A stretch of 64,000 nucleotides of DNA from a bacterium (GTDB lineage: Bacteria > Patescibacteriota > Patescibacteriia > JACPHY01), in the NCBI GenBank assembly GCA_030646955.1, contig JAUSKM010000028.1:1065-65064 (forward strand), given 5' to 3'. The notes below the pieces were generated by a model that saw only the letters and a program-made list of their open reading frames with translations, was not told where the DNA came from and ran no database searches. This document shows, piece after piece, positions 1-44,076 of this stretch. Positions within the stretch are counted from its first letter, which is position 1. Every line of letters starts with the position of its first letter. The translations under genes were made by a program, and so were the position numbers.

Positions 1-84
1 GCCTTCCACCTGGCTGTCCTCCAGGAGGCGGCCAAGGTGGAGCAGCGTCGCAACCTACTCCACCTCAAGGCCCGCTGCCGGTAG
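1..84 (+). CDS. 3' end of a gene truncated by the window start (…AFHLAVLQEAAKVEQRRNLLHLKARCR*)
   Basis: An open frame enters from the window edge and ends at TAG 82-84. A hairpin at 105-128 lies just downstream. Confidence 0.3.
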   Translation, partial: AFHLAVLQEAAKVEQRRNLLHLKARCR

Positions 85-104
85 TTCACCGGCGCGGTCT
101 CAAA

Positions 105-180
105 GGCCCTGCAGAATACCGCAGGGCCTCCCACCCGAGCACCGCTCATCAAGCGATACTCGGGTGGGAAAGAGAAGCGA
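105..180 (+). repeat. Bipartite hairpin element, copy A: variable hairpin 105-128, conserved hairpin CCCACCCGAG…CTCGGGTGGG 130-168, then AAAGAGAAG tail
   Basis: The sequence shows a 10-bp perfect outer stem plus an inner CGCT/AGCG stem. The same architecture recurs at 684-752 and 1152-1220. Confidence 0.6.
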
Positions 181-225
181 TCGATCATTCAACCATGCGG
201 CACACACCGCAGATAGGAAACGACA

Positions 226-435
226 ATGACCGTGCTGACCATGCTGTCCGTGTTCATCGTTGCCACCGTGGCGACGCTCGTCGCCGCCCTCATCGTTAGC
301 GCACTGGTGGAGGCGTTCGTAGATACGTGCCACTTCATCGAATACGTAGGATTTTCGGTGCCGGTCGTTCGGTGGATCGTCATGCCCATCGTGATCCTGG
401 TCACGCACTTCACCCCCGGGAGACGCTCCTGGTGA
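226..435 (+). CDS. small hydrophobic membrane peptide (69 aa)
   Basis: It is listed in the ORF track with an AGGAAA RBS-like motif upstream. It is strongly hydrophobic and sits downstream of element copy A. Confidence 0.45.
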   Translation: MTVLTMLSVFIVATVATLVAALIVSALVEAFVDTCHFIEYVGFSVPVVRWIVMPIVILVTHFTPGRRSW

Positions 436-596
436 CGAACGAGGGAGATCCGAAAGGAGATAACATGAACAGTTAGGCAGCGCGGAGCGCGCTTGCCAAC
501 GAACCTGGAGGGCTGTGCCGCCCTGGGGAATGCCCCGAAACGCCCCGGAGTCACCTGCCGAACATGTGGTGAGCCATGAGGAAGCAGATCCTCGCC

Positions 597-672
597 GGGC
601 GAGTAGCTCAGTTGGGAGAGCACCGGCTTTGCAAGCCGGGGGTCGCGGGTTCGAAACCCGTCTCGTCCACCA
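597..672 (+). tRNA. tRNA-Ala (anticodon TGC), CCA encoded
   Basis: The 7-bp acceptor stem carries a G3:U70 pair. The anticodon loop is TTTGCAA, the T-arm is GGTTCGAAACC and the 3' end is ACCA. Length is 76 nt. Confidence 0.9.
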
Positions 673-683
673 GTTCCTTCGGA

Positions 684-752
684 GCCCGATGCAATCGGGC
701 TTCCACCCGAGCACCGCTTATCAAGCGATGTTGAGGTGGGAAAGAGAAGCGG
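684..752 (+). repeat. Bipartite hairpin element, copy B (degenerate 3' arm)
   Basis: Hairpin GCCCGAT-gca-ATCGGGC is followed by CCACCCGAGCACCGCTTATCAAGCGATGTTGAGGTGGG and AAAGAGAAG. It lies immediately 3' of tRNA-Ala. Confidence 0.55.
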
Positions 753-778
753 ACGAAGATTCAACAGAGGCCTCGACC

Positions 779-1135
779 ATGGCCGAAGGAGATGACGTGA
801 CTAAGGGAAGAAAGAAAGAGCTTCTCGCTTGTTCCGCGGCTCTCGCGGGGATGCTGCTCATGGGCGGCGCGGGCGTAATTTGCGCCGTGCATGGCAAGGT
901 CCTTTGGCTTGCCTTGACGCCTACGGATCTCTTCTTTGGCGCCATCGGGCTGGGGGTCATGTCCTTGTTTGTTGCCCTTTCGGGAGGAGTTGGCCTCCTC
1001 GTGTTTTACGACTTGTACTTCCGGGTCCGCGATGAGCAGGACCAGCAGCGCCCCCGCACCAGCTTGCGCCTGGTGTACTCGCGCAAGGGTGTCTCGCCGC
1101 GAGCGCCCAACACACATCTGCGCCTGGTCGCGTAG
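779..1135 (+). CDS. small membrane protein (118 aa, 2-3 TM helices)
   Basis: It uses an in-frame ATG within ORF 515..1135. The product is hydrophobic and the gene lies downstream of element copy B. Confidence 0.45.
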   Translation: MAEGDDVTKGRKKELLACSAALAGMLLMGGAGVICAVHGKVLWLALTPTDLFFGAIGLGVMSLFVALSGGVGLLVFYDLYFRVRDEQDQQRPRTSLRLVYSRKGVSPRAPNTHLRLVA

Positions 1136-1151
1136 ATGTCGACTACAGCAG

Positions 1152-1220
1152 CCCCGAGTTATTCGGGGTCCCGCCCGAGTACCGCTCACAGAGCGATGCT
1201 CGGGTGGGAAAGAGAAGTGA
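1152..1220 (+). repeat. Bipartite hairpin element, copy C
   Basis: Hairpin CCCCGAG-ttat-TCGGGG is followed by CCCGCCCGAGTACCGCTCACAGAGCGATGCTCGGGTGGG and AAAGAGAAG. Confidence 0.6.
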
Positions 1221-1266
1221 TTGGTTCATTCATTGTCGCGGCAATGCGCCGCAAAGAGGAGTGTCC

Positions 1267-1452
1267 ATGCAGAATCTGGCAGTGTTTGCCGCGATCGGTT
1301 CGTTGTTCATCACCCCGTACGCCCTCACCGCCATCTTCGGCTGCCTGCTGGTGGCGATGGTGGTCGGCATCGGCCGCTACTTGGTGGTGGGCTACAAGGA
1401 GAGCCAGATCCAGCCAGCCCGTGATGTGTGCCCCATCATTCTCGCCTCGTAA
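1267..1452 (+). CDS. small membrane peptide (61 aa)
   Basis: An AAGAGGAG Shine-Dalgarno sits 7 nt before the ATG. There are two predicted TM segments. It lies downstream of element copy C. Confidence 0.5.
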   Translation: MQNLAVFAAIGSLFITPYALTAIFGCLLVAMVVGIGRYLVVGYKESQIQPARDVCPIILAS

Positions 1453-1543
1453 CCTGCTCCGAAAAAGGAGCAGGATCCCACATGGGTTCTGGAGGCCGCG
1501 TTACTTCGAGCAATCGGAGTACCTCCAGAACCCGTGCGGGATA
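1453..1543 (+). repeat. Bipartite hairpin element, copy D: CCTGCTCC-gaaaaa-GGAGCAGG then long hairpin ATCCCACATGGGTTCTGGAGG…CCTCCAGAACCCGTGCGGGAT
   Basis: The ~19-bp stem contains G:U pairs. The loop holds CCGCGYTAY and a GNRA-like sub-hairpin. Confidence 0.55.
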
Positions 1544-1635
1544 TCAATGATCCCTGGTCAGCGCCGGATGCCAACCGGTGCGTGTTCGTTCAACAACGTT
1601 GTCCCACGGGCGGCACCGTGGGGATTGGAGATCCG

Positions 1636-2661
1636 ATGTTCGGAATCGGTATCGGTGAAGGGTTCGGGTTGTTCAGCAAGTTCTTCACGGCGGAGGACGG
1701 CGAGAACGCGCTCGCGTCCCTCGGGGAGCATCTCTCCGCAAAGCGTGTGGTGTTCGTGGACACGTGCGCCACGCCCGTGCTGGCGGAGGTCATCGGGACG
1801 CTCGTCGCTCGCGGCGTGGAGGTCCACGTGCGCGACCACCACCGCGGCGAGGGTCGTACGCCCGAGGCCGTGGAGGCCATCGAGGCGGTGCTGGGAAAGC
1901 GGGCGCACATCGTGGCGCGCAAGGAGGCGCCCGCGTGCGCGCTGCTGCTGCGGCACGGTGAGTTCCGCGGCCCGGGCACGGTCATCGTGGCCGATCCGGA
2001 TTTGGATGGGCTCACCGCGGCGATGAAGGCCGCGGGCGTGGCGTACGAAGGCATGGATCAGGACGCCGAGATCTTCGACGTCCGGCCGCGCCAGTCCGCG
2101 GAGACGCTGACGCCGTTCGGATGGGTCCTGGTGCGGGCGCTGTCCTCGCTGCCGCTGTTCGATCCGGACCGTCCGGGCGACAGCGACCGCGCGAAGGCGG
2201 ACTTCTTCTACGGCATCGTTCGCGCGGTCATGGGTGACAGCATCGAGCGCCGCGAGTTGGAGGACCGCGCGCGGCACTACGACGCCTGCGTGGCCGAGTC
2301 GCGGCGGATGCTCAAGGAGCACATGGATAAGCCGCTGCCCGGCGTGTGTTTCGTGGACACGATGGGTGCGGCGCCGTTCGACTTCACCACCCTCACACAG
2401 GGGATGGAGCAGGCCGGTGCCGTGGTGACCGCGGTCCGCAAGGACAGCGGTCCCATCGCGCGGCTGCACGGCGGTGTCCAGTACTCGCTGGCGGTGGTGC
2501 AGCGCCACCAGCGCGAGCTGGACCTGCGTACGCTGGTGCCCGCGGGGACGCCCATCGGTCTCGAGGCCGGCCTCATTTCCAACACGCCGTTCCTGCTGCA
2601 CTGCAGCAGCGAGGTGTGGATGCAGACCATCTTCTACGCGCTCGCGATGCGCCTCAGGTAG
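1636..2661 (+). CDS. hypothetical protein (341 aa)
   Basis: A long ORF in the track has an internal ATG that follows GGAG. I could not recognise a family. It lies downstream of element D. Confidence 0.55.
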   Translation: MFGIGIGEGFGLFSKFFTAEDGENALASLGEHLSAKRVVFVDTCATPVLAEVIGTLVARGVEVHVRDHHRGEGRTPEAVEAIEAVLGKRAHIVARKEAPACALLLRHGEFRGPGTVIVADPDLDGLTAAMKAAGVAYEGMDQDAEIFDVRPRQSAETLTPFGWVLVRALSSLPLFDPDRPGDSDRAKADFFYGIVRAVMGDSIERRELEDRARHYDACVAESRRMLKEHMDKPLPGVCFVDTMGAAPFDFTTLTQGMEQAGAVVTAVRKDSGPIARLHGGVQYSLAVVQRHQRELDLRTLVPAGTPIGLEAGLISNTPFLLHCSSEVWMQTIFYALAMRLR

Positions 2662-2764
2662 TTCCTTTCCCAAGAGCCACGTGCGTGTGCATGCATGCGC
2701 ACGTGGTCCCACCCCGGCACGCGATACAGTCGCACATCGAGGTGGGAGATTCGAGCGGAGCGCT

Positions 2765-2905
2765 TGCCACATGTCATTTCGAACGGAGCGCAGCGAAGAG
2801 AGAAATCTCACGCGCCGCAAACTTTGGAGAAACTTCGGTAACTTATGGAGCGCAATCAAACGATGGGGCGTGTGAGATTTCTCACTGCGTTCGAAATGAC
2901 AGGAG
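2765..2905. repeat. Inverted-repeat pair (about 40-nt arms at 2765-2812 and 2862-2905), a variant of the GTCATTTCGA…GAAATCTCAC hairpin repeat
   Basis: The arm GTCATTTCGAACGGAGCG…AGAAATCTCAC is mirrored by GTGAGATTTCTCACTGCGTTCGAAATGAC. Confidence 0.5.
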
Positions 2906-2912
2906 TTACATG

Positions 2913-2953
2913 TTTGGCTCAATAAACATAGTAAATAGCTACATTGAGCCAAA
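2913..2953 (+). promoter_or_regulatory. Palindromic operator-like site TTTGGCTCAAT-N19-ATTGAGCCAAA abutting the -35 box
   Basis: This is a perfect 11-bp inverted repeat that ends 15 nt upstream of TTGACA. Confidence 0.4.
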
Positions 2954-2968
2954 AAGGTAAAACTGGTC

Positions 2969-2997
2969 TTGACACTTCTGACAGCGCGAGGTATAAT
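2969..2997 (+). promoter_or_regulatory. Consensus sigma70-type promoter TTGACA-N17-TATAAT
   Basis: The hexamers are exact, the spacer is 17 nt, and local GC is about 50%. Confidence 0.55.
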
Positions 2998-3004
2998 GGT
3001 TTTG

Positions 3005-3345
3005 TACAATGATTTGTGACTCTGAAGGTGCGGATTGGAGCTTCACAAACGCAGATGGATTGCGTGCGGCACAAGGCGAGTACTTGAGTGGCAAGAAATA
3101 GTGTCAACTCGCTGACATGTCGCATTCCAACGGCAGAGTATCTGCCAGAGGAGAGAGCCCGAGTGACGGGGTTACAGTCACACCGCACGTTGTTACGAAA
3201 GCAATGCACCACGCTTCCGCGTTTCCCTACCTCCAAATGCCGAGGGGGACGCGGCAGCCGCAGTGTGGAATGCTGTCGTGACAACGTTCGAAAACCATAA
3301 ACCCGAAACTCCCTCCTCGCTTGGTGCGAAGGGGGAGTTTTGATT
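3005..3345 (+). ncRNA. Candidate ~340-nt non-coding leader or sRNA from the consensus promoter, ending in an intrinsic terminator
   Basis: No credible ORF is present. The only track ORF, 3088..3300, is low-complexity. The transcript ends at terminator 3306-3341 just before the RBS and ATG of a small peptide gene. Confidence 0.3.
3306..3341 (+). terminator. Intrinsic terminator or attenuator hairpin followed by a TTTT tract
   Basis: AAACTCCCTCCTCGC-ttggt-GCGAAGGGGGAGTTTT forms a stem of about 15 bp with two bulges. Confidence 0.5.
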
Positions 3346-3356
3346 GGAGGATGCAC

Positions 3357-3491
3357 GATGAATAACCCCGCGTCTGTCGTGGCGGCCATCACCGCCGGAA
3401 TCGCGGCGGCGCACGGTCACTGGCTGGTGGTCGCGGCGCTGGTCGTTCTCGGCATCGTAGCCGAGGTCGTACATCGCCGAGGCAAACGGTG
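3357..3491 (+). CDS. small membrane peptide (44 aa; MNNPASVVAAITAGIAAAHGHWLVVAALVVLGIVAEVVHRRGKR)
   Basis: GGAGG sits 8 nt upstream of the ATG. The peptide is hydrophobic. It is absent from the ORF track because it is under 60 aa. Confidence 0.4.
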
Positions 3492-3499
3492 ACATGCAA

Positions 3500-3567
3500 A
3501 TGCCGACCCGCGTCGGCATCCCACCCGAGCGCTGCAACCCTAGTGGCCTGCAGTGCTCGGGCGGGAT
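3500..3567 (+). repeat. Bipartite hairpin element, copy H: ATGCCGAC-ccgc-GTCGGCAT then ATCCCACCCGAGCGCTGCA…TGCAGTGCTCGGGCGGGAT
   Basis: It has the same outer stem as copies A-C. Confidence 0.55.
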
Positions 3568-4586
3568 GAGGACGTTACCGTGCAAGCCGGTTGCACCCGC
3601 GGATTGCTCCGCGGAAGTTTCGTGCAAATGCAACGTTCGTTCCCCGCGACGCCGCGACGATGCGGCGTGAACAAGAAGCGGAGGTCGCCAAAGCTCACTG
3701 CGGGTTTACCGCGAGCGATGAGCGATGGGGCGATACTCCATCTCCGGCGCGGCAGCCAGCGAAGCCGTGCCTAGCCATGAGCCGAAGAAAGAGGTGCAGA
3801 TGAAGGTTTGAAAAGCGCCATGACCCAGCGCTGAAACAGAAAAGGGGTTGCGTAACGAAGTGACCGCCGTTCGTCTGGGCTGCTATCCCAGCGGCAATGC
3901 CGGTAGACCAACGGTCGGTTCGTGTGTGTGACTGCAGGGATGGGAACCTGCAGGGACCTGCATCGGAGCAAAGCGGAGGTGGTACATGAAGCCGTAGAGG
4001 CGCTGACTGGCAGCGCGAACAGAAATAAATCAGACACCGTGCGGACCCCACCGGCCGCTGCGCCCGACGATGGGAGCGGCCAAGGCAAGACTCGAACAGA
4101 GCCCAATGGAGGTGGTACATGCGGCAGTGAGTGCGCCAATGGAGCCGGCGCGGTACAAATGGGTTCCACAAGGATCGTCCGCACTCCGAGCTGCCTCTGC
4201 CGTGAGGAGCGGGGTCGGACAAACCACAACCAGGGGAACGATGCGCGGCACAACGACCTAGCCCGCGCGAAGATCGTTTCCCAAACCCACGCCTGGCGCA
4301 AGGAGGCGCCGTGACATGACGGATTGGTTTTGAGCGCCAATACAGCCACGGGTCGGCGCAAACAGAAATAGGACCCAAACGGAGGCGCCGCGCCTCTGGA
4401 GGCCACGGTTCCCGAGTACCGGACGCGCCGCGAAGCGGTGACAAAACTCGGCGGGGCTTCCCACTCGGATATGCCTCGAAGTCAGGACACGGTGCATTCG
4501 GAAGTACAGCACACGAGTGTTCCTGATGAACCGTTCCTTTCCACGTCCCCGCGCCCAGTTGTTCTCCACCTGCGCGGATGCGACGA

Positions 4587-4678
4587 GATCCCGACTGCAT
4601 GCAGTCGGGATCCCACCCGGGCCTCTTGGAGCCGCGCTACGTGCCGCAAGGCATGTACTCCAAGGGTCCGGGTGGGAT
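4587..4678 (+). repeat. Bipartite hairpin element, copy F: GATCCCGACTGCA/TGCAGTCGGGATC then ATCCCACCCGGGCCTCTTGGAG…CTCCAAGGGTCCGGGTGGGAT
   Basis: The loop is CCGCGCTACGTGCCGCAAGGCATGTA. It lies immediately upstream of the lipoprotein gene. Confidence 0.6.
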
Positions 4679-4732
4679 TGGAAGCGAAGTACCTTCAACC
4701 GTGCGGCGCATGCGCCGCGGAAAGGATCGAAC

Positions 4733-5026
4733 GTGAAGAAGTCCATCATCGGTGCCATCTTCGTTCTCCTCGGCGGCTGCAGCATCTTCGAGACCAGCGA
4801 GGAGCAGCAGCGCGCCGACGAGCGGAAGGCGGATACCCACGCCGCAGCGGAGGCCGCCTGCTCCACCGCGGGCTTTCTCCCGCCTCGGCCGGTCTGGCGC
4901 ACGTGCGCCATCATGGGTCAGAGGAAATTTTACTGCTTCTACTGCGCGGACGAGCGGGGGGTGCTCTACCCCGTGCTCTCCCCGGAGAGAAGCCCCGACC
5001 ATCTTCACGTCATCGACGAGCGCTAG
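4733..5026 (+). CDS. small lipoprotein (97 aa, GTG start, lipobox LLGGC, Cys-rich C-terminus)
   Basis: AAAGGA lies upstream of the GTG. The signal peptide plus LGGC motif indicates a lipoprotein. Confidence 0.5.
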   Translation: MKKSIIGAIFVLLGGCSIFETSEEQQRADERKADTHAAAEAACSTAGFLPPRPVWRTCAIMGQRKFYCFYCADERGVLYPVLSPERSPDHLHVIDER

Positions 5027-5039
5027 CTCTTTCCCCGTC

Positions 5040-5127
5040 CCCGCTCCGGTACAGAGCGGGATTCCACATGGGTGCTGCAGGCCGCGCTATCCGCCGCAAG
5101 GCGGGTACCTGCAACGCCCATGTGGGG
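5040..5127 (+). repeat. Bipartite hairpin element, copy E: CCCGCTC-cggtaca-GAGCGGG then CCACATGGGTGCTGCAGG…CCTGCAACGCCCATGTGG
   Basis: The loop is CCGCGCTATCCGCCGCAAGGCGGGTA. Confidence 0.55.
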
Positions 5128-5285
5128 TATAGCCCCGATGTTTCTGTCATCTCGACGAGGCTGCGAGGAGGAATCTTACCCGCTACAATAGATTGGGGTG
5201 TGTGAGATCCCTCGCGCCGCAGACGGTACTCGGGATGACGGAAGAATGTTCGATCGCAACGACGGTCGCATGATTGGCACTGCTC

Positions 5286-5372
5286 GGCAAGAAGAGGACG
5301 GGTCGTCCTGCCCGTAAGGGTCGCCGGGGTAAGCGTGGGTTCGATTCCCGCCGGTGCCACCAGCAGTACGGG
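5286..5372 (+). other. tRNA-like minihelix: 7-bp acceptor stem, T-arm GTGGG-TTCGATT-CCCGC, discriminator A and CCA, but no canonical D or anticodon arms
   Basis: The 3' end …GGGTTCGATTCCCGCCGGTGCCACCA pairs with the 5' strand GGCACTG. The internal 52 nt cannot be folded into an anticodon stem-loop. Confidence 0.3.
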
Positions 5373-5439
5373 AGGGGGACATGGTGTCCCCGTCCATCTT
5401 TCAAACCAGTGCCCCGCGACGCGGGGCAGGAGGTACGAG

Positions 5440-6030
5440 ATGTCCGGAAGGCAGATCATCCTCGTGGTCGGACCGACCACGTCCAGCGCGCCCACCAGCG
5501 CCGCCCTCGCGGAGCTGGGCCTCACGGCTTCGCAGCGGTTCGCGGAGCTGACGGCGGGCATGCCGCTCTCCGCGGAGCAGCAGGTCGTCCAGGCCCTGAT
5601 GGGCAGCATGGACGAGGTGCACGAGGCGCTCGGCCTCGACGGACGCGACCTCACGGGCTTCGTCGGGCCGGCCCTGCGGCTCCGCAGCGAGCCGTACACG
5701 CGCGTCCGCCGCAGGGCGGCGCGGCGGAGCGGGGCCGACGAGTTCATCGTCGGCCCCACCCACCGCAACTCGATGACCCTGCTCGGCGGGGACCTCGAGG
5801 AGAGCGGCGGGGTGGAGCGCCTCACCCCCGAGGCGATCCTGATCGCCCAGGAGGGGTACGAGCCGGCGCCGCGCGTGAACGAGGCGGTGGCCCCGGACGT
5901 GGCCGCGGTGCAGGCCGAGCTGGCCGCGCGGTTGGCGGAGGTCCGCCAGCGGGCCAGCGACGCCCGCTACGTGCGCGATCGTCGTAGCTACGATGCGCGC
6001 CGCAACGTGCGGACGTACGTGGCGGCCTAG
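5440..6030 (+). CDS. hypothetical protein (196 aa)
   Basis: CAGGAGG lies 6 nt upstream of the ATG. A GC hairpin sits just before the RBS. Confidence 0.5.
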   Translation: MSGRQIILVVGPTTSSAPTSAALAELGLTASQRFAELTAGMPLSAEQQVVQALMGSMDEVHEALGLDGRDLTGFVGPALRLRSEPYTRVRRRAARRSGADEFIVGPTHRNSMTLLGGDLEESGGVERLTPEAILIAQEGYEPAPRVNEAVAPDVAAVQAELAARLAEVRQRASDARYVRDRRSYDARRNVRTYVAA

Positions 6031-6273
6031 CGGCATCATCGCCGCGCACTGGGAGTGACCACCCAGCGATAACGGACCCGCGCGCGACGGATTCGCGCTA
6101 CGCAACGATCGGAGCCCCGATGCCCAAGGCACCGGAACGTTTACCCGGGCGGCTTGCGGCCGCTGCAAGCACCCATGGACAGGCGAAGCCCCAACGCCTG
6201 CCCGATCACGGGGCGCGTCACCTGCGAGAATGGTGAGCCCAGGGGAAGCAGAACCCCCACGCCGAGGAGGCAT

Positions 6274-6369
6274 GATCCCGACCGTCCGTATGAGGTCGGG
6301 ATCCCACCCGGGTACGAGAAGCCGCGCTATTGGATCGCAAGATTCAGTACTTCTCCACCCGGGTGGGAT
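6274..6369 (+). repeat. Bipartite hairpin element, copy G: GATCCCGACC…GGTCGGGATC then ATCCCACCCGGGTACGAGAAG…CTTCTCCACCCGGGTGGGAT
   Basis: The loop is CCGCGCTATTGGATCGCAAGATTCAGTA. It lies upstream of membrane protein 6434. Confidence 0.6.
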
Positions 6370-6433
6370 TGTATAAGGAGCGTTCATTCACCATCACGCA
6401 TCTGCTAGAGCGGGTGCAAGAGAGGAGTGTGCA

Positions 6434-6790
6434 ATGTTGAAGCGAGTGTTGAATCTGGTGGCGATCGTCGCGATGCTGCTCGGCACGGCCGCCGGCTTGC
6501 TCGCCGACTCTTTCGTGGCGTGGCTCGTAGCATGTGCGTTCTCCGTGGTAGCGCTCAGCGCGAAATTCGTGCTCCCTTCCGGTGCCGTGGCGCTGCTCGG
6601 CGGACTGTTCACGGCGGGTGCCTGTGTCATCTGCGGGTTCTTCTCCGCGGTGTTCCCGGAGTCCGACATCATCATGATCGGCTACGGCATCGGAGCGGTT
6701 TGCGGGCTGATGATTTTCTCCATCGGCGTCGAGCTTGCAGACCGCGAGATGGGCATCCCGCCGGGACGCTTCCTGCGCCGCTTCGCCTAG
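6434..6790 (+). CDS. small integral membrane protein (118 aa)
   Basis: AGAGGAG RBS is present and the product has about 4 predicted TM helices. Confidence 0.5.
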   Translation: MLKRVLNLVAIVAMLLGTAAGLLADSFVAWLVACAFSVVALSAKFVLPSGAVALLGGLFTAGACVICGFFSAVFPESDIIMIGYGIGAVCGLMIFSIGVELADREMGIPPGRFLRRFA

Positions 6791-7021
6791 TCCACGTCTC
6801 CGCGCGGTGACATATGGCCTTGCGCCGTTCTTCGTCGCGCAGCGCCCGCTGCATCTGACGATGTGTCACCGGTATACTGCGATAGTCCCCACAGCCTCAC
6901 CCTTGAGGTCACCGTGGGGACTCCCTCCGTTGGATTGGAACCTCGATCCAACAGAGGGAGAAAGCTCCCATTTCACAACACGAAGGGGCAATGCCCCTTC
7001 CCTCCAGAGAGAGGAGAAGCG

Positions 7022-7933
7022 ATGCGAACGTTCGTGATGATGGCCTGCCTCGCCGTGATGGCGGGCGGGTGCGGAGCAACGCAGCAGGGCGATCAGCCGG
7101 CCGCGGCCGTGCAGCCCGAAAGCCACAAGGAGACGCCGACGCAGGCCACTGCGCCGCTCGAGGACTCCAAGTACCCGCAGATCACAGAGATCATGAGGGG
7201 GGTCAGCCCCGATCAGTGCGATGAGGTGGGTATCTTCGGGCAGCTCTTGCGCGTCTTCGCAAAGATGCCCGACGAGCAGTTGCGGCGGGTGCAGCAAGAG
7301 TGCGACGTCGAGCAAGATGGGATGGTTGCAACCGCCGTACCGTGCATCATGACCGTGGCACAGGCCGTTGCGGACGCTCGTCGCGCGCCCGGCGGGCCGT
7401 GCAGCGCCACGGACCAGCGCGCCGAGGCCGAGCGGCTGACCACGGAGCTTCGTGAGTTCCCCCCGCCGCCCGAGCCCATGCCGGAGCCGATGCCGACGAA
7501 GCTCGCGCTGGAGCTGTGGACCGGCTACATGCTCATGGACCTGGAGCAGTCGCCGCCCAAGATGGTGGCGCTTGACACCGAGCACTACATCACCTGGGCG
7601 GAGGCGCTCAAGAACGGTGTCGTGCTGCAGCCCGAACCGCTTCCCGGTGGCGGATGGTGCTTCCCGGTTCCGGGAGGCGTGATCTTTCGCAGCGTCTGTT
7701 CCTCGGAGAACGGCGTGTGGGGGACCATCGTCATCGACAGCGGCAAGGACGCGGGGCACGCGTTCAACGTGCGCGCCCACAAGGTGGAATCCATGCTCGA
7801 CCCGTGTTCCCGGGGCGTCTGCGGCAAGTTCTACAAGCTCGTCGCGGACGACGTCGTCGGGTGCAGCGGCCCGCGCTGCCGCGAGTTTTGGGAGCACACC
7901 AACGACTCCTCCTCTTCCCTCAAGCAGCTTTGA
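7022..7933 (+). CDS. secreted lipoprotein with Cys-rich C-terminal domain (GGGWCFPVPG…DDVVGCSGPRCRE), paralogue of 11403..12269
   Basis: GAGGAGAAG RBS is present. The signal peptide plus MAGGC lipobox indicates a lipoprotein. The C-terminal ~100 aa are shared with the 11403 gene. Confidence 0.6.
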   Translation: MRTFVMMACLAVMAGGCGATQQGDQPAAAVQPESHKETPTQATAPLEDSKYPQITEIMRGVSPDQCDEVGIFGQLLRVFAKMPDEQLRRVQQECDVEQDGMVATAVPCIMTVAQAVADARRAPGGPCSATDQRAEAERLTTELREFPPPPEPMPEPMPTKLALELWTGYMLMDLEQSPPKMVALDTEHYITWAEALKNGVVLQPEPLPGGGWCFPVPGGVIFRSVCSSENGVWGTIVIDSGKDAGHAFNVRAHKVESMLDPCSRGVCGKFYKLVADDVVGCSGPRCREFWEHTNDSSSSLKQL

Positions 7934-8180
7934 CGCTGCACGGTGCCGAGCCACGCGCTCGGCACCTCCCCACGCAAGATGAGTCATCATCTTCCGTGGG
8001 GAGGACAGCCTCCGATTCACAATCAACCCATTCCTTCCTCGTCATTTCGACCGAGTGCTGCTGTGCGCGAGTGGAGAAATTTCTGCATGTCGCAGTTCGT
8101 GTGATGTGTGAGATTGCTTCGTCGCGTGAGGCCGCGCTTCTCGCAATGACGGGAGGGAAAGAGAAAAGAGAGGAGATCCG

Positions 8181-9437
8181 ATGCGTGTATTCGCACTGGT
8201 GCTCATCATGGCCGCGATGTTCGCGGCGTGCGACAACGAGGACGAGCAGGAGGGTGCGCCGCTGTCCACGGAGGAGTGGACCACACTCCCGCCGTCCGAG
8301 GAGGCCTGCGGCAGCACCGAGCAGGCGTTGACCGTGAGCGACCTGATCAAGTACAGGCGCAAGCACCCGGTGAAGGTGCCGGCCTGGGCCGCCCCGGAGC
8401 CGACGTGCGAGCAACCCACGCTGCGCGTGGCAAACGTCGGCCCGACGGACGATCCCGAGGGCGAGTTCCTGGGCATTGCCGCCACCGTGACCGCGGGCAA
8501 CTGCAGCGTCACGGTGGAACACATCACGTTTTCTCTGCGCATGCGCATCGACGGCGTCGCACAGGCGGTGGGCGGTCCAAGCGACCTGCTCACCGGTGTG
8601 CGGATCGCCGCAGGCGACCCGGCCGGACTGCCCGGCGGCGCTCCGCTCGCGGATGCGCTGACGGAGGAGCTGTACAGCTATCCCGTTGGCGCGTACGCGC
8701 TGGCGTGGAGCACCTACGGCTCGTACCGCGACGATGCGGTAGCGGTGCCCGCGGGTGAGAGTCGCACCATCGGATTGTTCGCATCGCTTGGCACCGCCGC
8801 TCCCGCGACGTACCTCTTCAGCGTTAGCGGCGCCTCCGTGCGCATCGGCAACGAGGAGTACCCGCGCGAGTTTGGCGGTCCGCTCTTTGGCCTCCCGTTT
8901 CGCGTGACGGAGCCGCCGCCCGCGGTCTGCAAGCAGCCGTTCGTGAGCGTGTGGCCGCTGGCGCCCGAGGACAACACCTTCGGCGTGTCGCGCAAGCTCA
9001 TCGCCGAGGTTTTCGCTCCGGACTGCGACCTGCATCTCACGCGGTTCGATGTTTCGTTCCGCCGCGTGAACGACGTGGAGGGCGATGGCGGCGAGCAGTG
9101 GGCACTCTTCTCGTGGAGCCACCTGTCGAAAGTGGAAACGCTCGACCTCGCAGTCGGACTCAATGCCGATCCGGACGAGATCACACACATCTCCGTCCAA
9201 TCGGTCGAGGGGCTTTCCGGCGCGGTGATGCGAACGTTCAGCTCATGGGAAGGAATCCACGTCCCGGCCGGCGACAGCGCGATTTTCGAGATCGCCACGT
9301 CGCTGGACGCGGACATCCTTCCCGGTGAGTACCTGCTCGCCGTCGAACGGGTGGAGGGCACCGTGCTCGACACCGACGACGACGTGCAGCTCTACGGACT
9401 GCCCGCCTTCGGCATCCCGTTCACCATCTCGGAGTAG
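8181..9437 (+). CDS. hypothetical lipoprotein (418 aa, lipobox MFAAC)
   Basis: A strong RBS GAGAGGAG is present. It has a signal peptide plus Cys and an acidic N-terminal region. Confidence 0.6.
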   Translation: MRVFALVLIMAAMFAACDNEDEQEGAPLSTEEWTTLPPSEEACGSTEQALTVSDLIKYRRKHPVKVPAWAAPEPTCEQPTLRVANVGPTDDPEGEFLGIAATVTAGNCSVTVEHITFSLRMRIDGVAQAVGGPSDLLTGVRIAAGDPAGLPGGAPLADALTEELYSYPVGAYALAWSTYGSYRDDAVAVPAGESRTIGLFASLGTAAPATYLFSVSGASVRIGNEEYPREFGGPLFGLPFRVTEPPPAVCKQPFVSVWPLAPEDNTFGVSRKLIAEVFAPDCDLHLTRFDVSFRRVNDVEGDGGEQWALFSWSHLSKVETLDLAVGLNADPDEITHISVQSVEGLSGAVMRTFSSWEGIHVPAGDSAIFEIATSLDADILPGEYLLAVERVEGTVLDTDDDVQLYGLPAFGIPFTISE

Positions 9438-9599
9438 CTCTTTCCGGTTCGATGCCGCGTGCGTACCAGCACGCGGCCCCACCTCTGCACTGGTTACACA
9501 ACCAGGATGGAGGTGGGAATGTACGGATAGCACCTTTAATCTGACGAGTCGGCTGCGTGGTGCAGCCGGGATTGTTTCGAAACGAAAGGAGAGGGAACG

Positions 9600-10547
9600 A
9601 TGCGAATGCGAAACGGTGTTCTCGTGGCGCTCTGCGTTGGACTGATCATGGGCTGCGCGGCGCGACAGCACTCGCTGGAGCCGGAGCTGTCCTACGCGCT
9701 GGATGCGGCACGCAACCCGCAGGAGGTGGCGTACGTCGGCAACAACCCGGAGCTCGCGATGCTGTTCGACGCGCTCGCGCGGCGGACCCCGAGTGCCTTC
9801 CGTGGCGTCAAGATGTCCAGCATCGCCGACGTCATGCAGGATTGCGACCCTGCGGATGGCACGCTCGCCTCCCACATCGCACCGACGCTCCACGGCATCG
9901 AGGTGACCGTGGAGGCAAGCTGCTTCGCGGGCAACACCTACGTGATGTCGAAGCGGTCAACGACCGTCGCGCTGACGACAGCGACCGTGCCGGATCCGGA
10001 CGTCGGACTGTCGGCGGAGGAGCTGCAGGAGCGATACCCGCGCATGGAGTACGAGAAGCTCCGGTCGCACAAACACAAGGATGCATGGTTCGCTCCGTTC
10101 GCGGGCGTGTATCACTTGCGGTATGCGCGCCCGCTCTCCGTGGTGCTCTCCGCCGAGAAGTTCGGCATCGAGACCGATTTCGTGCGCGCCGAGCAGCGGG
10201 TTGCGGTTACGTTTCGCCAGCGCTACGACATGCAGCTGGAGGGAAACGACTTCACGGAGGCGTCCGCAATCTACGCGGGCATCGTGGATGACTACGGCGA
10301 CGGCAACCACCTCGTCACTCCGTGGGAGTACGCGAAGTTCGAGGAGGACATCCTGCGTCTCGCGGCCATTCACCTCGGCCTCCTGGCAGATGCCGAAGTG
10401 CGTCGCATGCTGACGGAGCAGGGCGTGCGCGTCAACGAGGCGACGCAGTGGGTCGAGCGCGTCCGCGCGCTCCAGGAGACCTCGTTGGTAGTGCAGTTCC
10501 CCCCGCCCGACACGGACGCACCCGAAGACCTCAGCCGCTCCTTCTGA
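9600..10547 (+). CDS. hypothetical lipoprotein (315 aa, lipobox IMGC)
   Basis: AGGAGAGGGAACG lies upstream of the ATG, and a signal peptide is present. Confidence 0.6.
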   Translation: MRMRNGVLVALCVGLIMGCAARQHSLEPELSYALDAARNPQEVAYVGNNPELAMLFDALARRTPSAFRGVKMSSIADVMQDCDPADGTLASHIAPTLHGIEVTVEASCFAGNTYVMSKRSTTVALTTATVPDPDVGLSAEELQERYPRMEYEKLRSHKHKDAWFAPFAGVYHLRYARPLSVVLSAEKFGIETDFVRAEQRVAVTFRQRYDMQLEGNDFTEASAIYAGIVDDYGDGNHLVTPWEYAKFEEDILRLAAIHLGLLADAEVRRMLTEQGVRVNEATQWVERVRALQETSLVVQFPPPDTDAPEDLSRSF

Positions 10548-10683
10548 TCGTCCTTTTTTCCTTCCCCCGCCGCGTGCGTACCAGCACGCGGCCCCACCTC
10601 TGCACTGGTCATGGGACCAGGATGGAGGTGGGCAGTACCGATGTAAGTAGTACCTTCCAACGACGTTTGATGAAAGGAGGACC

Positions 10684-11262
10684 ATGAGCGATCAGGATCG
10701 TGCGAATGGTTCCGGTGGCGATGTGCGCAACGATTTCGATCAGTGGTTCTGGGACGTGTGCCTGCCGAACGCGATGGACGCAAAGCACGGCGCCGATACG
10801 GAACCGTACGATGCGGACGACACGTACTCCTGGGGTGACGATTTGTACCCCTGGGAGCAGGAGCAGGAGGACGCCGCCCAGGACGAGGCAGACACCATCT
10901 ACTACGATGAGCTGCAGGCGGACCTCGACAACATGGACGAGTGGCTGCGCGAGGAGGACGAGCGTAGGCAGCGCGACGAGGAAGATCGCAACGAATTCTT
11001 CATCTTCGCTCGGCAGCATCGCCTGCCCGCCCCGCTCCGCACCCAGTTCTTCACCTGCCTCGACGGCGAGCAGTGCGCTGGCATGAGCGGCGACGTGTAC
11101 CGGCGCAGCGCGAGGAATCGCAGCTGGGACCGCTACCAGCGGGACTGCAAGGACAAGACCCTCCGCTCCTGGAAGCGCTACCGCGAGCGGCAGTGGTGGC
11201 GATTCCCGTCGCGTGCGTGGATGCGGCACCACCCGGGCCTCGACGAGTGGCCGAACGTTTGA
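10684..11262 (+). CDS. hypothetical acidic protein with Arg/Trp-rich C-terminus (192 aa)
   Basis: AAAGGAGG lies 6 nt upstream. The D/E-rich N-terminal two thirds are followed by a basic C-terminus. Confidence 0.55.
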   Translation: MSDQDRANGSGGDVRNDFDQWFWDVCLPNAMDAKHGADTEPYDADDTYSWGDDLYPWEQEQEDAAQDEADTIYYDELQADLDNMDEWLREEDERRQRDEEDRNEFFIFARQHRLPAPLRTQFFTCLDGEQCAGMSGDVYRRSARNRSWDRYQRDCKDKTLRSWKRYRERQWWRFPSRAWMRHHPGLDEWPNV

Positions 11263-11402
11263 TGATCGTAGTTGCCGACCCTCATGGTCGGCAACTCCCC
11301 TGAGCCATCGCACAACGATGGTTCAGGGGAGGAAGTCCTCCGCGTTTTACAACCCCTGGCACTCACGTGCCAGCTTCAGAGGAAGAAAGAAAGGAGTTCC
11401 CG

Positions 11403-12269
11403 ATGCGAAGCATCATGGTGCTCACCCTGGCCGCGGCGCTGGCCGCGTGTGCTGGGACGCAGCAGGAGAGCATGACAACCGTAGACACCGGCAACAGCGG
11501 CATGACCGCGACGCAGTACGCCGTGGCCGAGATGGGACCGTCGGTCTGCTCGGTCGAGGATATCAGCGACGTGCTGACGCAGGCCCTCCGCACCGAGGAA
11601 GATGTGCGCGAGTTCCAGCGCGGGTGCGGCATCAATCCGAGCACGGGCGTGCTGGATGACGCAACGGGCTCGTGCATCCATTCCACCGCGAGCACGATCC
11701 TGCAGGCGCGTCGCGAGCTGGGCATGTGCAGCGAGACGCCGGAGCCGCACGGCTCGGCCGAGGATCTGGTCCGCGATCTCCGCGAGTCGCTCGCGCAGGT
11801 GCCGCCCCCGCTCGGACCGATGCCCAGCGTGTCGCCGCTTCCCGCGGAGCTCCGGTTCGCCGCGTGGAGCGGGTTCGCCATCGTGAGCCTCGATCACGCG
11901 CCGCCGCGGGCTGCGGCGCTCGATGCGAACGGCCCCATCACGCAGGACGCGTTTTCTCGGGGTGTGGAGCTCCAGGCCGAGCAGATTCCCGGCGGCGGGT
12001 GGTGCTTCCCGGTTCCCGGGAGCATGACCTTCCGCGCGATCTGCTCGTCCGATAACGGCGTGTGGGGTGAGGTCGCGGTTCGCGATAGCGAGTTTGCCGG
12101 GCATACGCTCAACGTGCGTGCGACCAAGTATCCGATGTCGGGCCTCATCGCGTGCAGCGGCGATATCTGCGGCAACGTCTACAGCCTTGCCACCGACGAT
12201 GTTGTCGGGTGCAGCGGCCCGCGCTGCCGCGAGCTGTTCGACCGGAACCTGCGACCCAAGTCCGAGTAG
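11403..12269 (+). CDS. secreted lipoprotein paralogue (288 aa) sharing the Cys-rich C-terminal domain with 7022..7933
   Basis: AAAGGAG RBS is present with lipobox LAAC. The C-terminus GGGWCFPVPGSMTFRAICSS…DDVVGCSGPRCRE matches the 7022 gene. Confidence 0.6.
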   Translation: MRSIMVLTLAAALAACAGTQQESMTTVDTGNSGMTATQYAVAEMGPSVCSVEDISDVLTQALRTEEDVREFQRGCGINPSTGVLDDATGSCIHSTASTILQARRELGMCSETPEPHGSAEDLVRDLRESLAQVPPPLGPMPSVSPLPAELRFAAWSGFAIVSLDHAPPRAAALDANGPITQDAFSRGVELQAEQIPGGGWCFPVPGSMTFRAICSSDNGVWGEVAVRDSEFAGHTLNVRATKYPMSGLIACSGDICGNVYSLATDDVVGCSGPRCRELFDRNLRPKSE

Positions 12270-12452
12270 CACCCGCCACGCTCCGAAGTTCTTTCCCGGT
12301 GCCGACCCTCATGGTCGGCACCTCCCCCCGGCACGCTATCGCATGCATGTGCAATTGCAGATAGCAGACCGAGGGGAGGGAGGTCTCCGCTTCACAATTC
12401 TTGGCGCTCACGCGCCAGCTTCAGAGGAAGAAAGAAAAGAAAGGAGTTCCCG

Positions 12453-12545
12453 ATGCGCAGCGCGCGGATCATTGGGCGCGCAAACGGGACGCGCGGCAGC
12501 AAGCGCGCAGGCACCGCGACCTCGCGTCGCGGCAGCGAGATATGA
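12453..12545 (+). pseudogene. Remnant duplication of the 5' leader, RBS and first codons of lipoprotein gene 11403 (30-codon ORF)
   Basis: Sequence 12405-12460 (CTCACGCGCCAGCTTCAGAGGAAGAAAGAAA…GGAGTTCCCGATGCG) nearly repeats 11355-11405. The ORF ends after 30 codons. Confidence 0.35.
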
Positions 12546-12639
12546 TGATGTCTGAGCAGGACATCGCAGACGAGCGGCTGCAAGCAGCACGCAAATGAAA
12601 ACTGTCAGGCCCGAGACATCGGGCCTTTCCACCAGTGAT

Positions 12640-12825
12640 GATTTCTGGCATCATTGAGGGGAGGGAAGCGAATAAAATTGCGAGTCGGAACTTGCAAGAG
12701 GGACGGGTAGGTGATGGCGGTTGTGGCGACCGTACGCAAGTCGGTTTCCAGAGCCAACTCTCTCCTCCTATCACCTACCCATCTCTGCAGAGAAGCCCCA
12801 TGGAGGGCTTCTCTGTTTTTTGTTT
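12640..12825 (+). ncRNA. Candidate small RNA: 11-bp stem GGGTAGGTGAT/ATCACCTACCC closes a ~55-nt loop, followed by a strong intrinsic terminator
   Basis: The terminator is CAGAGAAGCCC-catgga-GGGCTTCTCTG plus TTTTTTGTTTT at 12787-12825. No ORF is present. Confidence 0.35.
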
Positions 12826-13230
12826 TGGGTGAGATTGCTTCGGGTGCTCGCAATGACGAGAATGGTAGGAGTGCGTGAAATGGTATGAGAGCGAGCAGCG
12901 AGGATCCAGCAGCCAGCACCTCTCCTTGACGCCGCCGGCTGATGCGCAACGATGGAGGTGCGCGTACTCATGAACAGCAATTGTTATGGAACAGGAAACG
13001 TGCGGATCGTGTGATTGCGGGAAGGCCGCGGAGACGGGTGTATGCTGCGGCGCCGGATGCGGGGCGGCATGCGGGACAGGCCATGATGATGCGAAAGATT
13101 GCGCGTGCGATGCGCATGGAACAACAGAGGCAAGCAAGAGCGACGCGGCGGCGTAGACACGACAGCGTTCCCTGTGGGAGTGCTGCCTGTTGTACACGAG
13201 GACTCTTTCGGTTTTTCTGCCGGCGTTCAC

Positions 13231-13362
13231 CCCATCTGATCCCCTCCCTCTCCGCGTACACGGGGAGAGGGAGGGAGAGGTGGGGCGATATCGCACCATC
13301 GCACAGCCAAGCATAGCCACCTCTCCCCCCTCCCCCCACGAGTACGTACGGGGAGGGGGAGG
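13231..13362. repeat. Composite G/C-rich palindromic element (about 130 nt): CCCCTCCCTCTCCGCGTACACGGGGAGAGGGAGGG / core / CCCCCTCCCCCCACGAGTACGTACGGGGAGGGGGAGG
   Basis: It is nearly identical, in reverse orientation, to 34347-34480. Further module copies occur elsewhere in the window. Confidence 0.7.
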
Positions 13363-13415
13363 ATAAGAAGCGTGCTTGGCGACACAAAAGCCGAAAGAAC
13401 CTACACTAGGAGAGT

Positions 13416-13874
13416 ATGAACATCGTCATCGGGGCGGACTACCGCGGATACAAGCGGAAGGAAGAGCTGAAAGCGTGGCTTGCGGAGCAGGGACATGTGG
13501 TGGAGGATCTTGGCTGCGAAACGGCCGAGGAGAATTCGTTCGTGCCGTACGCGGCGGCGGTGGCGCAGCGGGTTGCGCACGATAGCAATGTGTTGGGCAT
13601 CGTGATCTGCGGCTCCGGCGCGGGCGTGACGATTGCCGCAAACAAGGTGGCGGGCGCGCGTGCTGTGCTGGCGCAATCGCCGGAGGTGGCGGAGCATGGC
13701 CGTCGCTCGGACGATATGAACATTCTTGCGCTCTCCGCGGATTTCACCTCCTTTGCGTCTTCGCGTGCTATCGTTCGTGCGTTCTTGGAAACGGAATTTG
13801 AACCCTTGGAGCGCCGGGTGCAGCGGCTGGAGCAGATCGCCGCACTGGAGCGCGGGGAATCGGCGCACTCCTAG
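13416..13874 (+). CDS. rpiB: ribose-5-phosphate isomerase B
   Basis: The product has RpiB/LacAB-family motifs (IVIGADYRGY…GIVICGSGAGVTIAANK) and is 152 aa. Confidence 0.9.
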   Translation: MNIVIGADYRGYKRKEELKAWLAEQGHVVEDLGCETAEENSFVPYAAAVAQRVAHDSNVLGIVICGSGAGVTIAANKVAGARAVLAQSPEVAEHGRRSDDMNILALSADFTSFASSRAIVRAFLETEFEPLERRVQRLEQIAALERGESAHS

Positions 13875-44015: not shown

Positions 44016-44076
44016 AGAAAATACAAGAGTACAGCCCCCGACCGTGTGGTCGGGGGCTGTTGCAATTCGTTTGCTG

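Follow-up and report, generated by a model that had tools for sequence, protein, structure and literature searches.

Twin-hairpin modules at the gene boundaries of two orphan-gene clusters in a high-GC Patescibacteria lineage, candidate intercistronic RNA elements

In the early region of phage T7, repeated hairpins with an internal loop lie between the cistrons, where they are ribonuclease (RNase) III sites and yield stable units with hairpin 3' ends. In enterobacterial operons such as malE-malF and papBA, intercistronic stem-loops, repetitive extragenic palindromic (REP) sequences and bacterial interspersed mosaic elements (BIMEs) follow stop codons as GC-rich extragenic palindromes. They occur in many copies per genome and are thought to block 3' exonucleases or to shield newly formed 5' ends; differential decay in these operons is determined by protective hairpins at 3' and 5' positions (PMC5927463). 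In candidate phyla radiation bacteria (CPR, or Patescibacteria), orphan genes are abundant and their expression logic is obscure, and very few cis-regulatory RNAs have been described. Here, we analyze 64,000 nucleotides (nt) of a Patescibacteriota genome (GCA_030646955.1, contig JAUSKM010000028.1, positions 1,065 to 65,064 of the forward strand), a stretch that is called the window in what follows. One recognisable architecture, a module of two abutting hairpins, marks nearly every gene boundary in two orphan-gene clusters of this window and is retained, with covarying stems, in related genomes.

Each module comprises a variable first hairpin (hp1) and a second hairpin (hp2), usually CCCACC…GGUGGG, and measures 58-95 nt. 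The modules were located by direct folding of the 3' end of each gene and of each intergenic gap, with genes called from open reading frames (ORFs), third-position GC content and Shine-Dalgarno sequences; start codons are approximate. At least 22 modules are present in the window, 15 on the plus strand (105-12381) and seven on the minus strand (48531-44584; Table 1). All 22 have the orientation of the genes, with hp1 preceding hp2. The linker between both hairpins is 0 nt in the minimum-energy fold of 21 of the 22 modules, and the fold z-scores range from -4 to -12. The second hairpin very often starts with (U)CCCACC or UCCCC and ends with GGUGGG(A) or GGGGAGG. Part of this series had been noticed before: the original prediction, made from the sequence of the window, described eight copies between 105 and 6369, each a short hairpin followed by a longer one. 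Folding confirms all eight, including this arrangement, and their signature motifs occur far above chance. The number itself was too low, as a ninth copy (module X) was overlooked and the family extends beyond 105-6369. Gap folding continues the plus-strand series past the genes ending at 6790, 7933, 9437, 10547, 11262 and 12269, while the minus-strand modules are situated in a cluster at 48.5-44.0 kb, again with hp1 before hp2 along the gene direction.

Two types of hp2 are distinguished among the first nine copies. The short type (copies starting at 105, 684, 1152, 2677 and 3500) has a 10-bp outer stem, a 4-5-bp inner stem and a small internal loop with CAC on its 5' side. The long type (1453, 4587, 5040 and 6274) combines a conserved outer helix P1, a fully variable yet paired helix P2, a 6-nt 5' bulge CCGCGY and a helix P3 (UAY/GUA plus variable pairs) that is capped by GCAA. 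Covariance models of both types find each other at 21-32 bits, which indicates that they are related. The motif CCCACCCGRG has eight occurrences compared to 0.52 expected, a number reached in none of 100 shuffles, and CCGCGYTAY-N4-9-GCAA has four compared to 0.05 expected. A tail said to be shared by modules A to C, GGTGGGAAAGAGAAG, is indeed found exactly three times. Other sequence details of the original prediction need correction. The outer stem varies between copies, being TCCACCCGAG/TTGAGGTGGG in B, CCCGCCCGAG in C and CTCGGGCGGG in E. The alternative stem CCCACATGGG, assigned to modules D and E, occurs in the copies at 1453 and 5040. The CCGCGCTAY loop with its GCAA sub-hairpin, ascribed to modules D to G, is present at 1453, 4587 and 5040, absent at 3500 and also present at 6274.

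Compensatory changes between the stem arms, likewise reported before, are real. In the long type, 92.8% of the alignment cells are paired and 15 of 28 pairs have changed on both sides; none of 500 shuffles matches this pairing and covariation, and slid controls are only 26-49% paired. For the short type, 90% of the cells are paired. An alignment of 11 short- or K-type hp2 sequences (A4), taken from the window and from the related contig L202 described below, reaches 95.6% paired cells (matched by 0 of 500 shuffles), with compensatory changes in all four inner-helix pairs (4/4). A J-type alignment of nine sequences contains both hairpins and a conserved tail, GGGGAGG-N4-6-CCUCC-N1-3-UUCACAAC, before the next Shine-Dalgarno sequence. 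The paralogous lipoproteins encoded at 7022 and 11367 are only 37% identical, yet the modules that flank them keep their architecture with compensatory changes. The similarity between modules K and L starts precisely at the first base of hp1. In contrast to the compensatory changes, the G:U pairs that had been put forward as an argument for RNA do not carry it, as there are 32 in the sense fold and 44 in the antisense fold, with near-equal summed energies (-1027 and -1044 kcal/mol, respectively). The strand asymmetry of G:U versus A:C was tried as a test of RNA versus DNA and rejected as uninformative, since no bias is present.

The position of the modules is equally regular. In most of them hp1 begins 0-28 nt past the upstream stop codon, while hp2 ends at a variable distance (25-176 nt) ahead of the next start codon, which ties the element to the 3' end of the upstream unit. 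Module B follows a tRNA-Ala gene by 11 nt and module F follows a stretch of approximately 1 kb without a credible ORF. The other neighbours are lipoproteins of 97-418 amino acids (aa), soluble proteins of 170-367 aa (170-418 aa is also given) and an 18-codon mini-ORF. Several downstream genes do encode small proteins with one to four predicted transmembrane segments. Nonetheless, the specific tie to small membrane-protein genes that was proposed is not borne out, because modules also follow the tRNA, the non-coding stretch and the soluble proteins. The role proposed along with it, that of a 5' leader of tiny membrane peptides, does not agree with an element anchored to the upstream 3' end and separated from the next start codon by the distances given above. 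The small proteins are mutually unrelated, as stated earlier, and the proteins of the clusters have no match in Pfam, PHROGs, PADLOC or NCBIfam scans. With covarying stems next to unrelated proteins, the conserved unit is a structured nucleic-acid element rather than the proteins, also in line with the original prediction. The mini-ORF (46241-46146, minus strand; MSCPSRRIVTTKAARYHP) has a good Shine-Dalgarno sequence; it separates module Q from module R, and its stop codon abuts hp1 of R. A possible 38-codon ORF (6120-6236, plus strand) would put module H 37 nt past a stop codon.

Cumulative GC skew climbs monotonically over the window, which places both clusters in one replichore. Because the modules follow the genes on both strands within this replichore, their orientation tracks transcription and not replication. 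None of the 26 housekeeping gene 3' ends in the window carries twin hairpins, while many of these ends have a single hairpin with a U-rich tail. A covariance-model search of the remaining ~45 kb, which is housekeeping DNA, found nothing comparable. Random placement combined with absent covariation, the outcome that would have reduced the elements to generic repeats, is thus not what was found in the window: placement is non-random and the stems covary.

Each cluster of co-oriented orphan genes looks like a single long transcription unit, because each has one consensus promoter and one U-tract terminator. The plus-strand cluster spans ~3.0-12.8 kb, with a similar arrangement continuing upstream to the start of the window, and the minus-strand cluster spans ~50.5-44.0 kb. 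Our promoter scan detects near-consensus sigma-70 sites only; between the cistrons of both clusters it yielded no further promoter-like site of at least 9/12 positions. No U-tract follows hp2 in any module; purine-rich or mixed sequence is found instead, e.g., AAAGAGAAG or AUUGGAAG. A terminator scan of both clusters reports none of the modules, in which hp1 is met at once by hp2.

The modules are also found in other organisms. An 8.9-kb contig from another sample (L202; GC 67.7%) was reached via the 418-aa lipoprotein, whose orthologue is 68% identical. It carries nine twin-hairpin modules at 4-37 nt past stop codons, with abutting hairpins and all in gene orientation (9/9), and its cluster closes with a canonical terminator. 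Two of them, b and k2, flank the orthologous gene as J and K do in the window (orthologue of J at 1485-1543, of K at 2962-3066). By direct sequence comparison, hp1 of K and k2 are identical at 21 of 24 positions, while the hp2 interiors differ yet still pair. In a third organism (L203, GCA_030647005.1) a module is present with a palindromic insert of ~130 nt nested in hp2. The fact that modules are kept at orthologous as well as paralogous sites, covary and have conserved unpaired bases argues for purifying selection on the structure.

Beyond these relatives, database searches returned little. In Rfam, the tRNA-Ala is the sole match in the 64-kb window at the gathering score, and at E-values up to 5 the elements within positions 1-7000 are covered by chance microRNA-type matches only. 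The strict long-type pattern gave 35 singleton matches in 185,579 GTDB species genomes and 36 in JGI metagenomes, collections that do not include the source genome. Both numbers are close to that estimated from the degeneracy of the pattern (~33), and none of these singletons fits the covariance model at E < 0.01. Viral contigs contain no match to the strict patterns and only singletons with a relaxed one, and the phage nucleotide collection has no match to positions 1-7000. Relatives can also be reached via a 341-aa DHH-like protein (gene 1636-2661), whose named homologues belong to Patescibacteria or Candidatus Uhrbacteria; in those relatives (58-61% identity, GC 44-55%) the sequence motif is absent. 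The modules hence appear restricted to a small high-GC lineage, which supports the earlier suggestion of a lineage-specific element. At the syntenic spot, Uhrbacteria-like relatives have orphan-gene arrays with repeated intergenic modules of their own, which suggests that a conserved hotspot downstream of the DHH-like gene receives accessory genes whose regulatory regions are homogenised. In one such contig (L197, ENA contig_6623), a 243-nt unit is present four times in 11039-14445 (92-100% identity), and every copy includes a terminator-like hairpin as well as a promoter-like TTGCGG-17-TATATA. In another (L196), repeated intergenic units are located downstream of the DHH-like gene (11953-12071, 15499-15560 and 16619-16686), and tandem hairpins directly follow a stop codon.

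Our preferred reading, held tentatively and at a little under an even chance, is that the modules are cis-acting intercistronic RNA elements that would set processing and stability boundaries in long orphan-gene operons. It builds on their anatomy, placement, orientation and covariation, on their conservation in relatives and on their absence from housekeeping genes. From these features we infer transcription as one RNA, processing with protection, and protein binding. What marks the class of intercistronic elements, a stable structure at a cistron boundary that is conserved in relatives, was found here, and the promoter and terminator scans point to polycistronic transcripts. The protective operon hairpins of enterobacteria are a precedent, and a beta-CASP ribonuclease encoded in the window is a further point in favour. 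In almost all gaps between cistrons, the two hairpins would stack coaxially, base to base, into a 'dumbbell' from whose middle the flanking RNA exits. With no U-tract, such a dumbbell would be an inefficient stop for RNA polymerase; purified mycobacterial RNA polymerase shows no termination at hairpins lacking one (PMC3993855). Instead, it would mark a processing and stability boundary. After an endonucleolytic cut in or near the dumbbell, hp1 and hp2 would shield the upstream cistron from 3'-to-5' exonucleases, and the downstream cistron would keep a stable hairpin at or near its new 5' end. The outcome would be a separate half-life and expression level for each cistron. The conserved unpaired bases, i.e., the CAC loop of the short type and the CCGCGY bulge and GCAA loop of the long type, are probably the handle for a specific protein or nuclease, and the conserved tail of the J-type modules may be part of the translation-initiation region of the next cistron.

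Several points weigh against this reading. Co-transcription and processing would rest on inference from promoter-like and terminator-like sequences, and non-consensus promoters may be present in each gap, as the scan was limited to near-consensus sigma-70 sites. Neither the G:U and A:C counts nor the fold energies have a sense-strand bias, and the same hairpins would be expected just as well in antisense RNA or single-stranded DNA. Housekeeping operons are without modules, although they need balanced expression too; this absence fits elements that travel with accessory gene cassettes. Finally, some copies (K/L, F/H) have unrelated flanks and a sharp repeat boundary that falls precisely on the first hp1 base, as is expected for mobile or recombining units.

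The alternative that survives best, although we consider it rather unlikely, is that the modules are non-canonical tandem-hairpin terminators or attenuators without a U-tract, so that each gene would be its own unit or expression would step down along the cluster. The modules do occupy terminator positions, 0-28 nt past stop codons and after a tRNA, their stems are stable and GC-rich, and terminators made of tandem or clustered hairpins have been proposed (PMC8355165). Moreover, a stem resembling that of hp2, CCCACCCGGG/CCGGGTGGG, serves in the canonical terminator at 63057-63086. Yet, canonical U-tract terminators are used at the cluster ends and after housekeeping genes, whereas no module has the U-tract that purified RNA polymerases examined to date need (PMC3993855). 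The scan found no consensus promoters in the gaps for restarting transcription, and a terminator would need neither conserved bases in bulge and loop nor a linker of strictly 0 nt.

It is distinctly unlikely, in our estimation, that the modules are selfish or neutral palindromic repeats resembling REPs or miniature inverted-repeat transposable elements (MITEs), spread or homogenised by recombination in accessory clusters and with at most incidental effects on RNA. This would explain the many copies of an extragenic palindrome, the sharp repeat boundaries with unrelated flanks (K/L, F/H), the G:U pairs without strand bias, and the breaking of short-read contigs at modules. Other hairpin-repeat families are present as well, namely the GTGAGAT/GTCATTTCGA palindromes and the CCCCTCCCC hairpins. 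It does not explain the strict gene orientation in 22/22 modules of the window and 9/9 of L202, the fixed position after stop codons, the 0-nt linker, or the confinement of all 22 modules to two clusters, the ~45 kb of housekeeping sequence having none. That L202 keeps modules at orthologous sites, their interiors covarying and their unpaired bases conserved, equally speaks against it. Among the window proteins scanned there is no REP-associated tyrosine transposase (RAYT), other transposase or integrase, and neither a conserved GTAG 5' of the hairpins nor target-site duplications were seen in the module flanks. The original prediction had offered a REP-like element or a shared RNA-binding-protein site as further options. 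These come nearer to the findings than its other proposals, but the orientation, the restriction to two clusters and the orthologous retention are unlike generic REPs.

A more far-reaching form of the preferred reading, to which we give a slim chance, is that the modules constitute a dedicated RNA punctuation system of one high-GC Patescibacteria lineage, with the dumbbell as the recognition unit of a nuclease or RNA-binding protein. This partner protein would cut the transcripts of orphan operons into monocistronic units, possibly freeing the dumbbells as stable small RNAs. The long type would fold back, its tetraloop docking onto a helix, and processing would be linked to how the following cistron is translated by a switch between GGGGAGG, CCUCC and the Shine-Dalgarno sequence.

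Sites of recombination at the borders of mobile gene cassettes, comparable to the attC sites of integrons and with the array read from one upstream promoter, are very unlikely. The co-oriented, promoter-less and mostly small orphan genes behind a single strong promoter resemble such an array, and so does the imperfect palindrome close behind each gene, with conserved outer stems and a variable interior. In addition, identical modules stand behind unrelated genes (K/L), and relatives hold different orphan genes with repeated intergenic modules of their own at the syntenic spot. However, a pattern search on both strands found no RYYYAAC...GTTRRRY core pair overlapping any module, there are two separate hairpins instead of one bulged hairpin, and neither the window nor L202 yielded a tyrosine recombinase or an integrase domain, the start of the plus-strand array lying outside the window. 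Modules and flanking genes are kept at orthologous positions in L202, where no cassette turnover is visible.

Put sites, at which the nascent RNA modifies RNA polymerase, occur once per operon, just downstream of the promoter. Processive antitermination or anti-pausing by a similar nascent double hairpin is highly improbable here, since there is one module per gene, located after stop codons. It is suggested by the twin shape and by size alike, the put RNA of phage HK022 being a cis-acting double hairpin of ~65 nt (PMC8632103). There is no sequence similarity and no Rfam match, and antitermination would be pointless if the modules are the only hairpins of the operon.

Barely plausible is that the modules serve small toxic membrane peptides as a 5' leader or riboregulator, as in type I toxin-antitoxin systems, an analogy drawn in the original prediction: several downstream genes do encode small proteins with one to four predicted transmembrane segments behind stable structures, but the modules are anchored to the upstream stop and not to the downstream start, their neighbours include a tRNA and non-coding RNA as well as lipoproteins (300-418 aa) and soluble proteins (170-367 aa), and the genes form long co-oriented clusters instead of stand-alone toxin/antisense pairs. 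No consensus promoter-like site is present on the opposite strand near the small genes, where a single weak minus-strand match (1574-1547, 9/12) was found.

Other identities were rejected on sequence grounds. The motif UUCACAAY was considered as a promoter element for sigma-70 or extracytoplasmic function sigma factors, but it has no consistent partner hexamer, and in some modules the Shine-Dalgarno sequence is only ~5-10 nt away. Domain 5 of group II introns, K-turns, the 11-nt tetraloop receptor and lambda boxA/boxB were compared by eye, and either the bulge is on the wrong strand or consensus bases are absent.

Table 1. Coordinates of the twin-hairpin modules and of other features in the window and in related contigs.
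Feature	Position	Strand	Details
Module A	105-169	+	hp1 105-128, hp2 129-169; short type; 20 nt past stop 82-84; 0-nt linker, dG -44.9, z -7.9; tail AAGAGAAG
tRNA-Ala(UGC)	597-672	+	embedded between cistrons; module B 11 nt further on
Module B	684-741	+	hp1 684-700, hp2 701-741; short type
Module C	1152-1209	+	hp1 1152-1168, hp2 1169-1209; short type; 16 nt past stop 1135
Module D	1453-1543	+	hp1 1453-1474, hp2 1475-1543; long type; directly after stop 1452; hp2 with P1, P2, 6-nt bulge CCGCGU and P3 with GCAA loop
Module X	2677-2747	+	hp1 2677-2706, hp2 2707-2747; short type; 15 nt past stop 2661; ninth copy, after 341-aa gene; 60 bits with covariance model R2
Promoter-like site (sigma-70)	2969-2997	+	TTGACA-17-TATAAT, 12/12 positions; sole strong one in 1-13.5 kb
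Module E	3500-3566	+	hp1 3500-3518, hp2 3519-3566; 7 nt past stop 3492
Module F	4587-4677	+	hp1 4587-4611, hp2 4611-4677; long type; after non-coding 3570-4586
Module G	5040-5126	+	hp1 5040-5060, hp2 5062-5126; long type; 13 nt past stop 5026
Module H	6274-6368	+	hp1 6274-6302, hp2 6302-6368; long type
Module I	6885-6960	+	hp1 6885-6921, hp2 6922-6960; tail ...CUCCC-AU-UUCACAAC
Module J	7942-8004	+	hp1 7942-7966, hp2 7967-8004; 8 nt past stop 7933; tail CCUCCGAUUCACAAU
Module K	9454-9517	+	hp1 9454-9477, hp2 9478-9517; 16 nt past stop 9437
Module L	10569-10632	+	near-identical to K; compensatory change in apical stem
Module M	11271-11331	+	hp1 11271-11294, hp2 11295-11331
Module N	12298-12381	+	hp1 12298-12322, hp2 12323-12381
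Canonical intrinsic terminator	12787-12826	+	12-bp stem, then TTTTTTGTTTT; closes plus-strand cluster; sole canonical one in 1-13.5 kb
Canonical terminator	44024-44060	-	13-bp stem, U-rich tail; closes minus-strand cluster
Module T	44584-44648	-	hp1 then hp2 read on minus strand
Module S	45690-45765	-	
Module R	46084-46145	-	directly after stop of 18-codon mini-ORF
Module Q	46266-46340	-	
Module P	47446-47519	-	7 nt past stop 47527; tail AGAAAAACG...UUUCACCAAUGG, then Shine-Dalgarno sequence
Module O	47993-48072	-	
Module U	48467-48531	-	
Promoter-like site	50542-50570	-	TTGACA-17-(TG)TATAGT, 11/12 positions; upstream of minus-strand cluster
GTCATTTCGA family, window	2794-2889, 8040-8160, 14675-14750, 43931-44000, 49868-49975, 50170-50275, 50806-50889		
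GTCATTTCGA family, relatives	L202 1575-1690, 4962-5050; L203 1390-1520, 2135-2225		
Third hairpin family, window	13230-13380, 22980-23180, 34348-34473, 59754-59890, 60124-60154, 62115-62479		

The window (GC ~62%) is a piece of bacterial chromosome. It contains rpoB (51164-54421) and rpoC (54461-58426), a beta-CASP ribonuclease gene (29146-30540), and further bipA, efp, recA, ftsK, rpiB, rpe and the genes for fructose-bisphosphate aldolase and an ABC/MacB exporter. The ORF-less stretch of ~1 kb at 3570-4586 (plus strand) lies downstream of the perfect promoter at 2969-2997 and ends in module F. By eye, it has, especially at 3780-4340 (plus strand), several strong Shine-Dalgarno sequences with mini-ORFs of three to five codons behind them, e.g., GGAGGTGGTACATGAAGCCGTAG and GGAGGTGGTACATGCGGCAGTGA, and a recurring AACAGAAATA. 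Within 3570-4586, no Rfam match was obtained at E-values up to 5, nor a tandem repeat of any length (TRF). Between module G and the gene at 5440, a tRNA-like element (5276-5362, plus strand) has a 7-8-bp acceptor stem with a 3' CCA, a T arm with loop UUCGAUU, and C:G rather than G:U as the third acceptor pair. It matches the Rfam model of transfer-messenger RNA (tmRNA) at both ends only (25.9 bits, E 1.6e-7, with a gathering score of 47) and is without the entire mRNA-like and pseudoknot part of tmRNA; ARAGORN makes no call. At 63045-63097 (plus strand), a bidirectional-looking canonical terminator, AAACCCACCCGGG-AACA-CCGGGTGGGTTTCTCT, contains the CCCACCCGGG stem of hp2 in F and H, nested in a second outer stem.

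A second repeat family with a MITE-like look consists of long palindromes built on GTCATTTCGA(C/G).../CGTCATTGCGAG... and GTGAGAT(T/C)(T/G)CT; GTGAGAT occurs 19 times compared to 7 expected. In the window and in L202, copies closely follow J-type modules and also occur within the long leader of each cluster, and one L203 copy is nested inside hp2 of a twin-hairpin module. A third hairpin family, found after housekeeping genes, has C-rich 5' arms and G-rich 3' arms (CCCCCTCCCC...GGGGAGGGGG), several copies having the loop GTACCCAAG. Two Logan contigs of the same organism (L201 and L037, SRR13727527) end at 713 (within module B), 2782-2801 (within the GTCATTTCGA repeat that follows module X) and 9483 (within module K). 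As contigs end inside the repeats, these fragment assemblies of the region. Short-read assemblies that break at such repeats imply that clusters of this kind are under-represented among metagenome-assembled genomes.

If the modules are indeed processing and stability signals, they would help to delimit operons and expression units in uncultured episymbionts, would supply a candidate binding site with which to isolate the protein partner and, possibly, could be used as a compact and portable insulator between cistrons. If they are cassette boundaries instead, they would indicate a new route by which these bacteria assemble accessory surface-protein genes.

Among known systems, the arrays of TIGR-Tas, common in CPR bacteria, have variable and consistently palindromic stems (PMC12045711). 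Their units are separated by short linkers, whereas those of the modules are separated by whole genes. As an identity for the modules, TIGR stem-loop arrays were also rejected because there is no box C and because the scanned window proteins include no Tas protein. The only box C (RUGAUGA) in the modules is one chance antisense match in J, box D was not searched for, and no Nop domain occurs among the window proteins scanned. The HK022 put RNA is similar in shape and size and acts in cis, but the modules are present once per gene, after stop codons, and have no sequence similarity to it. Integron attC arrays share the co-oriented, promoter-less small genes that are each trailed by an imperfect palindrome with a variable middle, while the modules are without R''/R' core sites, have two hairpins instead of one, and come with no integrase found and no turnover relative to L202. 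Tandem- or cluster-hairpin and TRIT-like terminators of high-GC bacteria are likewise conserved, GC-rich, U-tract-less hairpins downstream of genes; in contrast, the genome studied here also employs canonical U-tract terminators at operon ends. Like the RNase III sites of T7, the modules are structurally similar hairpins between the cistrons of what would be one long transcript. They have no sequence relation to these sites and their context is not that of a phage (no PHROG matches), and the short-type stems, at 10 plus 4-5 bp, fall short of what RNase III needs if hp1 and hp2 do not stack; cleavage by this enzyme is hypothetical.

The closest likeness is to the enterobacterial intercistronic stem-loops and REP/BIME elements, which are GC-rich extragenic palindromes after stop codons in operons as well. 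The modules differ from these in that the scanned window proteins include no RAYT transposase and the module flanks show no GTAG motif, and in their retention at orthologous sites with conserved unpaired bases. What is new relative to known intercistronic palindromes is the combination of two different hairpins that abut with a 0-nt linker, a strict orientation along transcription and a restriction to orphan-gene clusters, together with a long type that carries a bulge and a GNRA loop and a conserved tail downstream.

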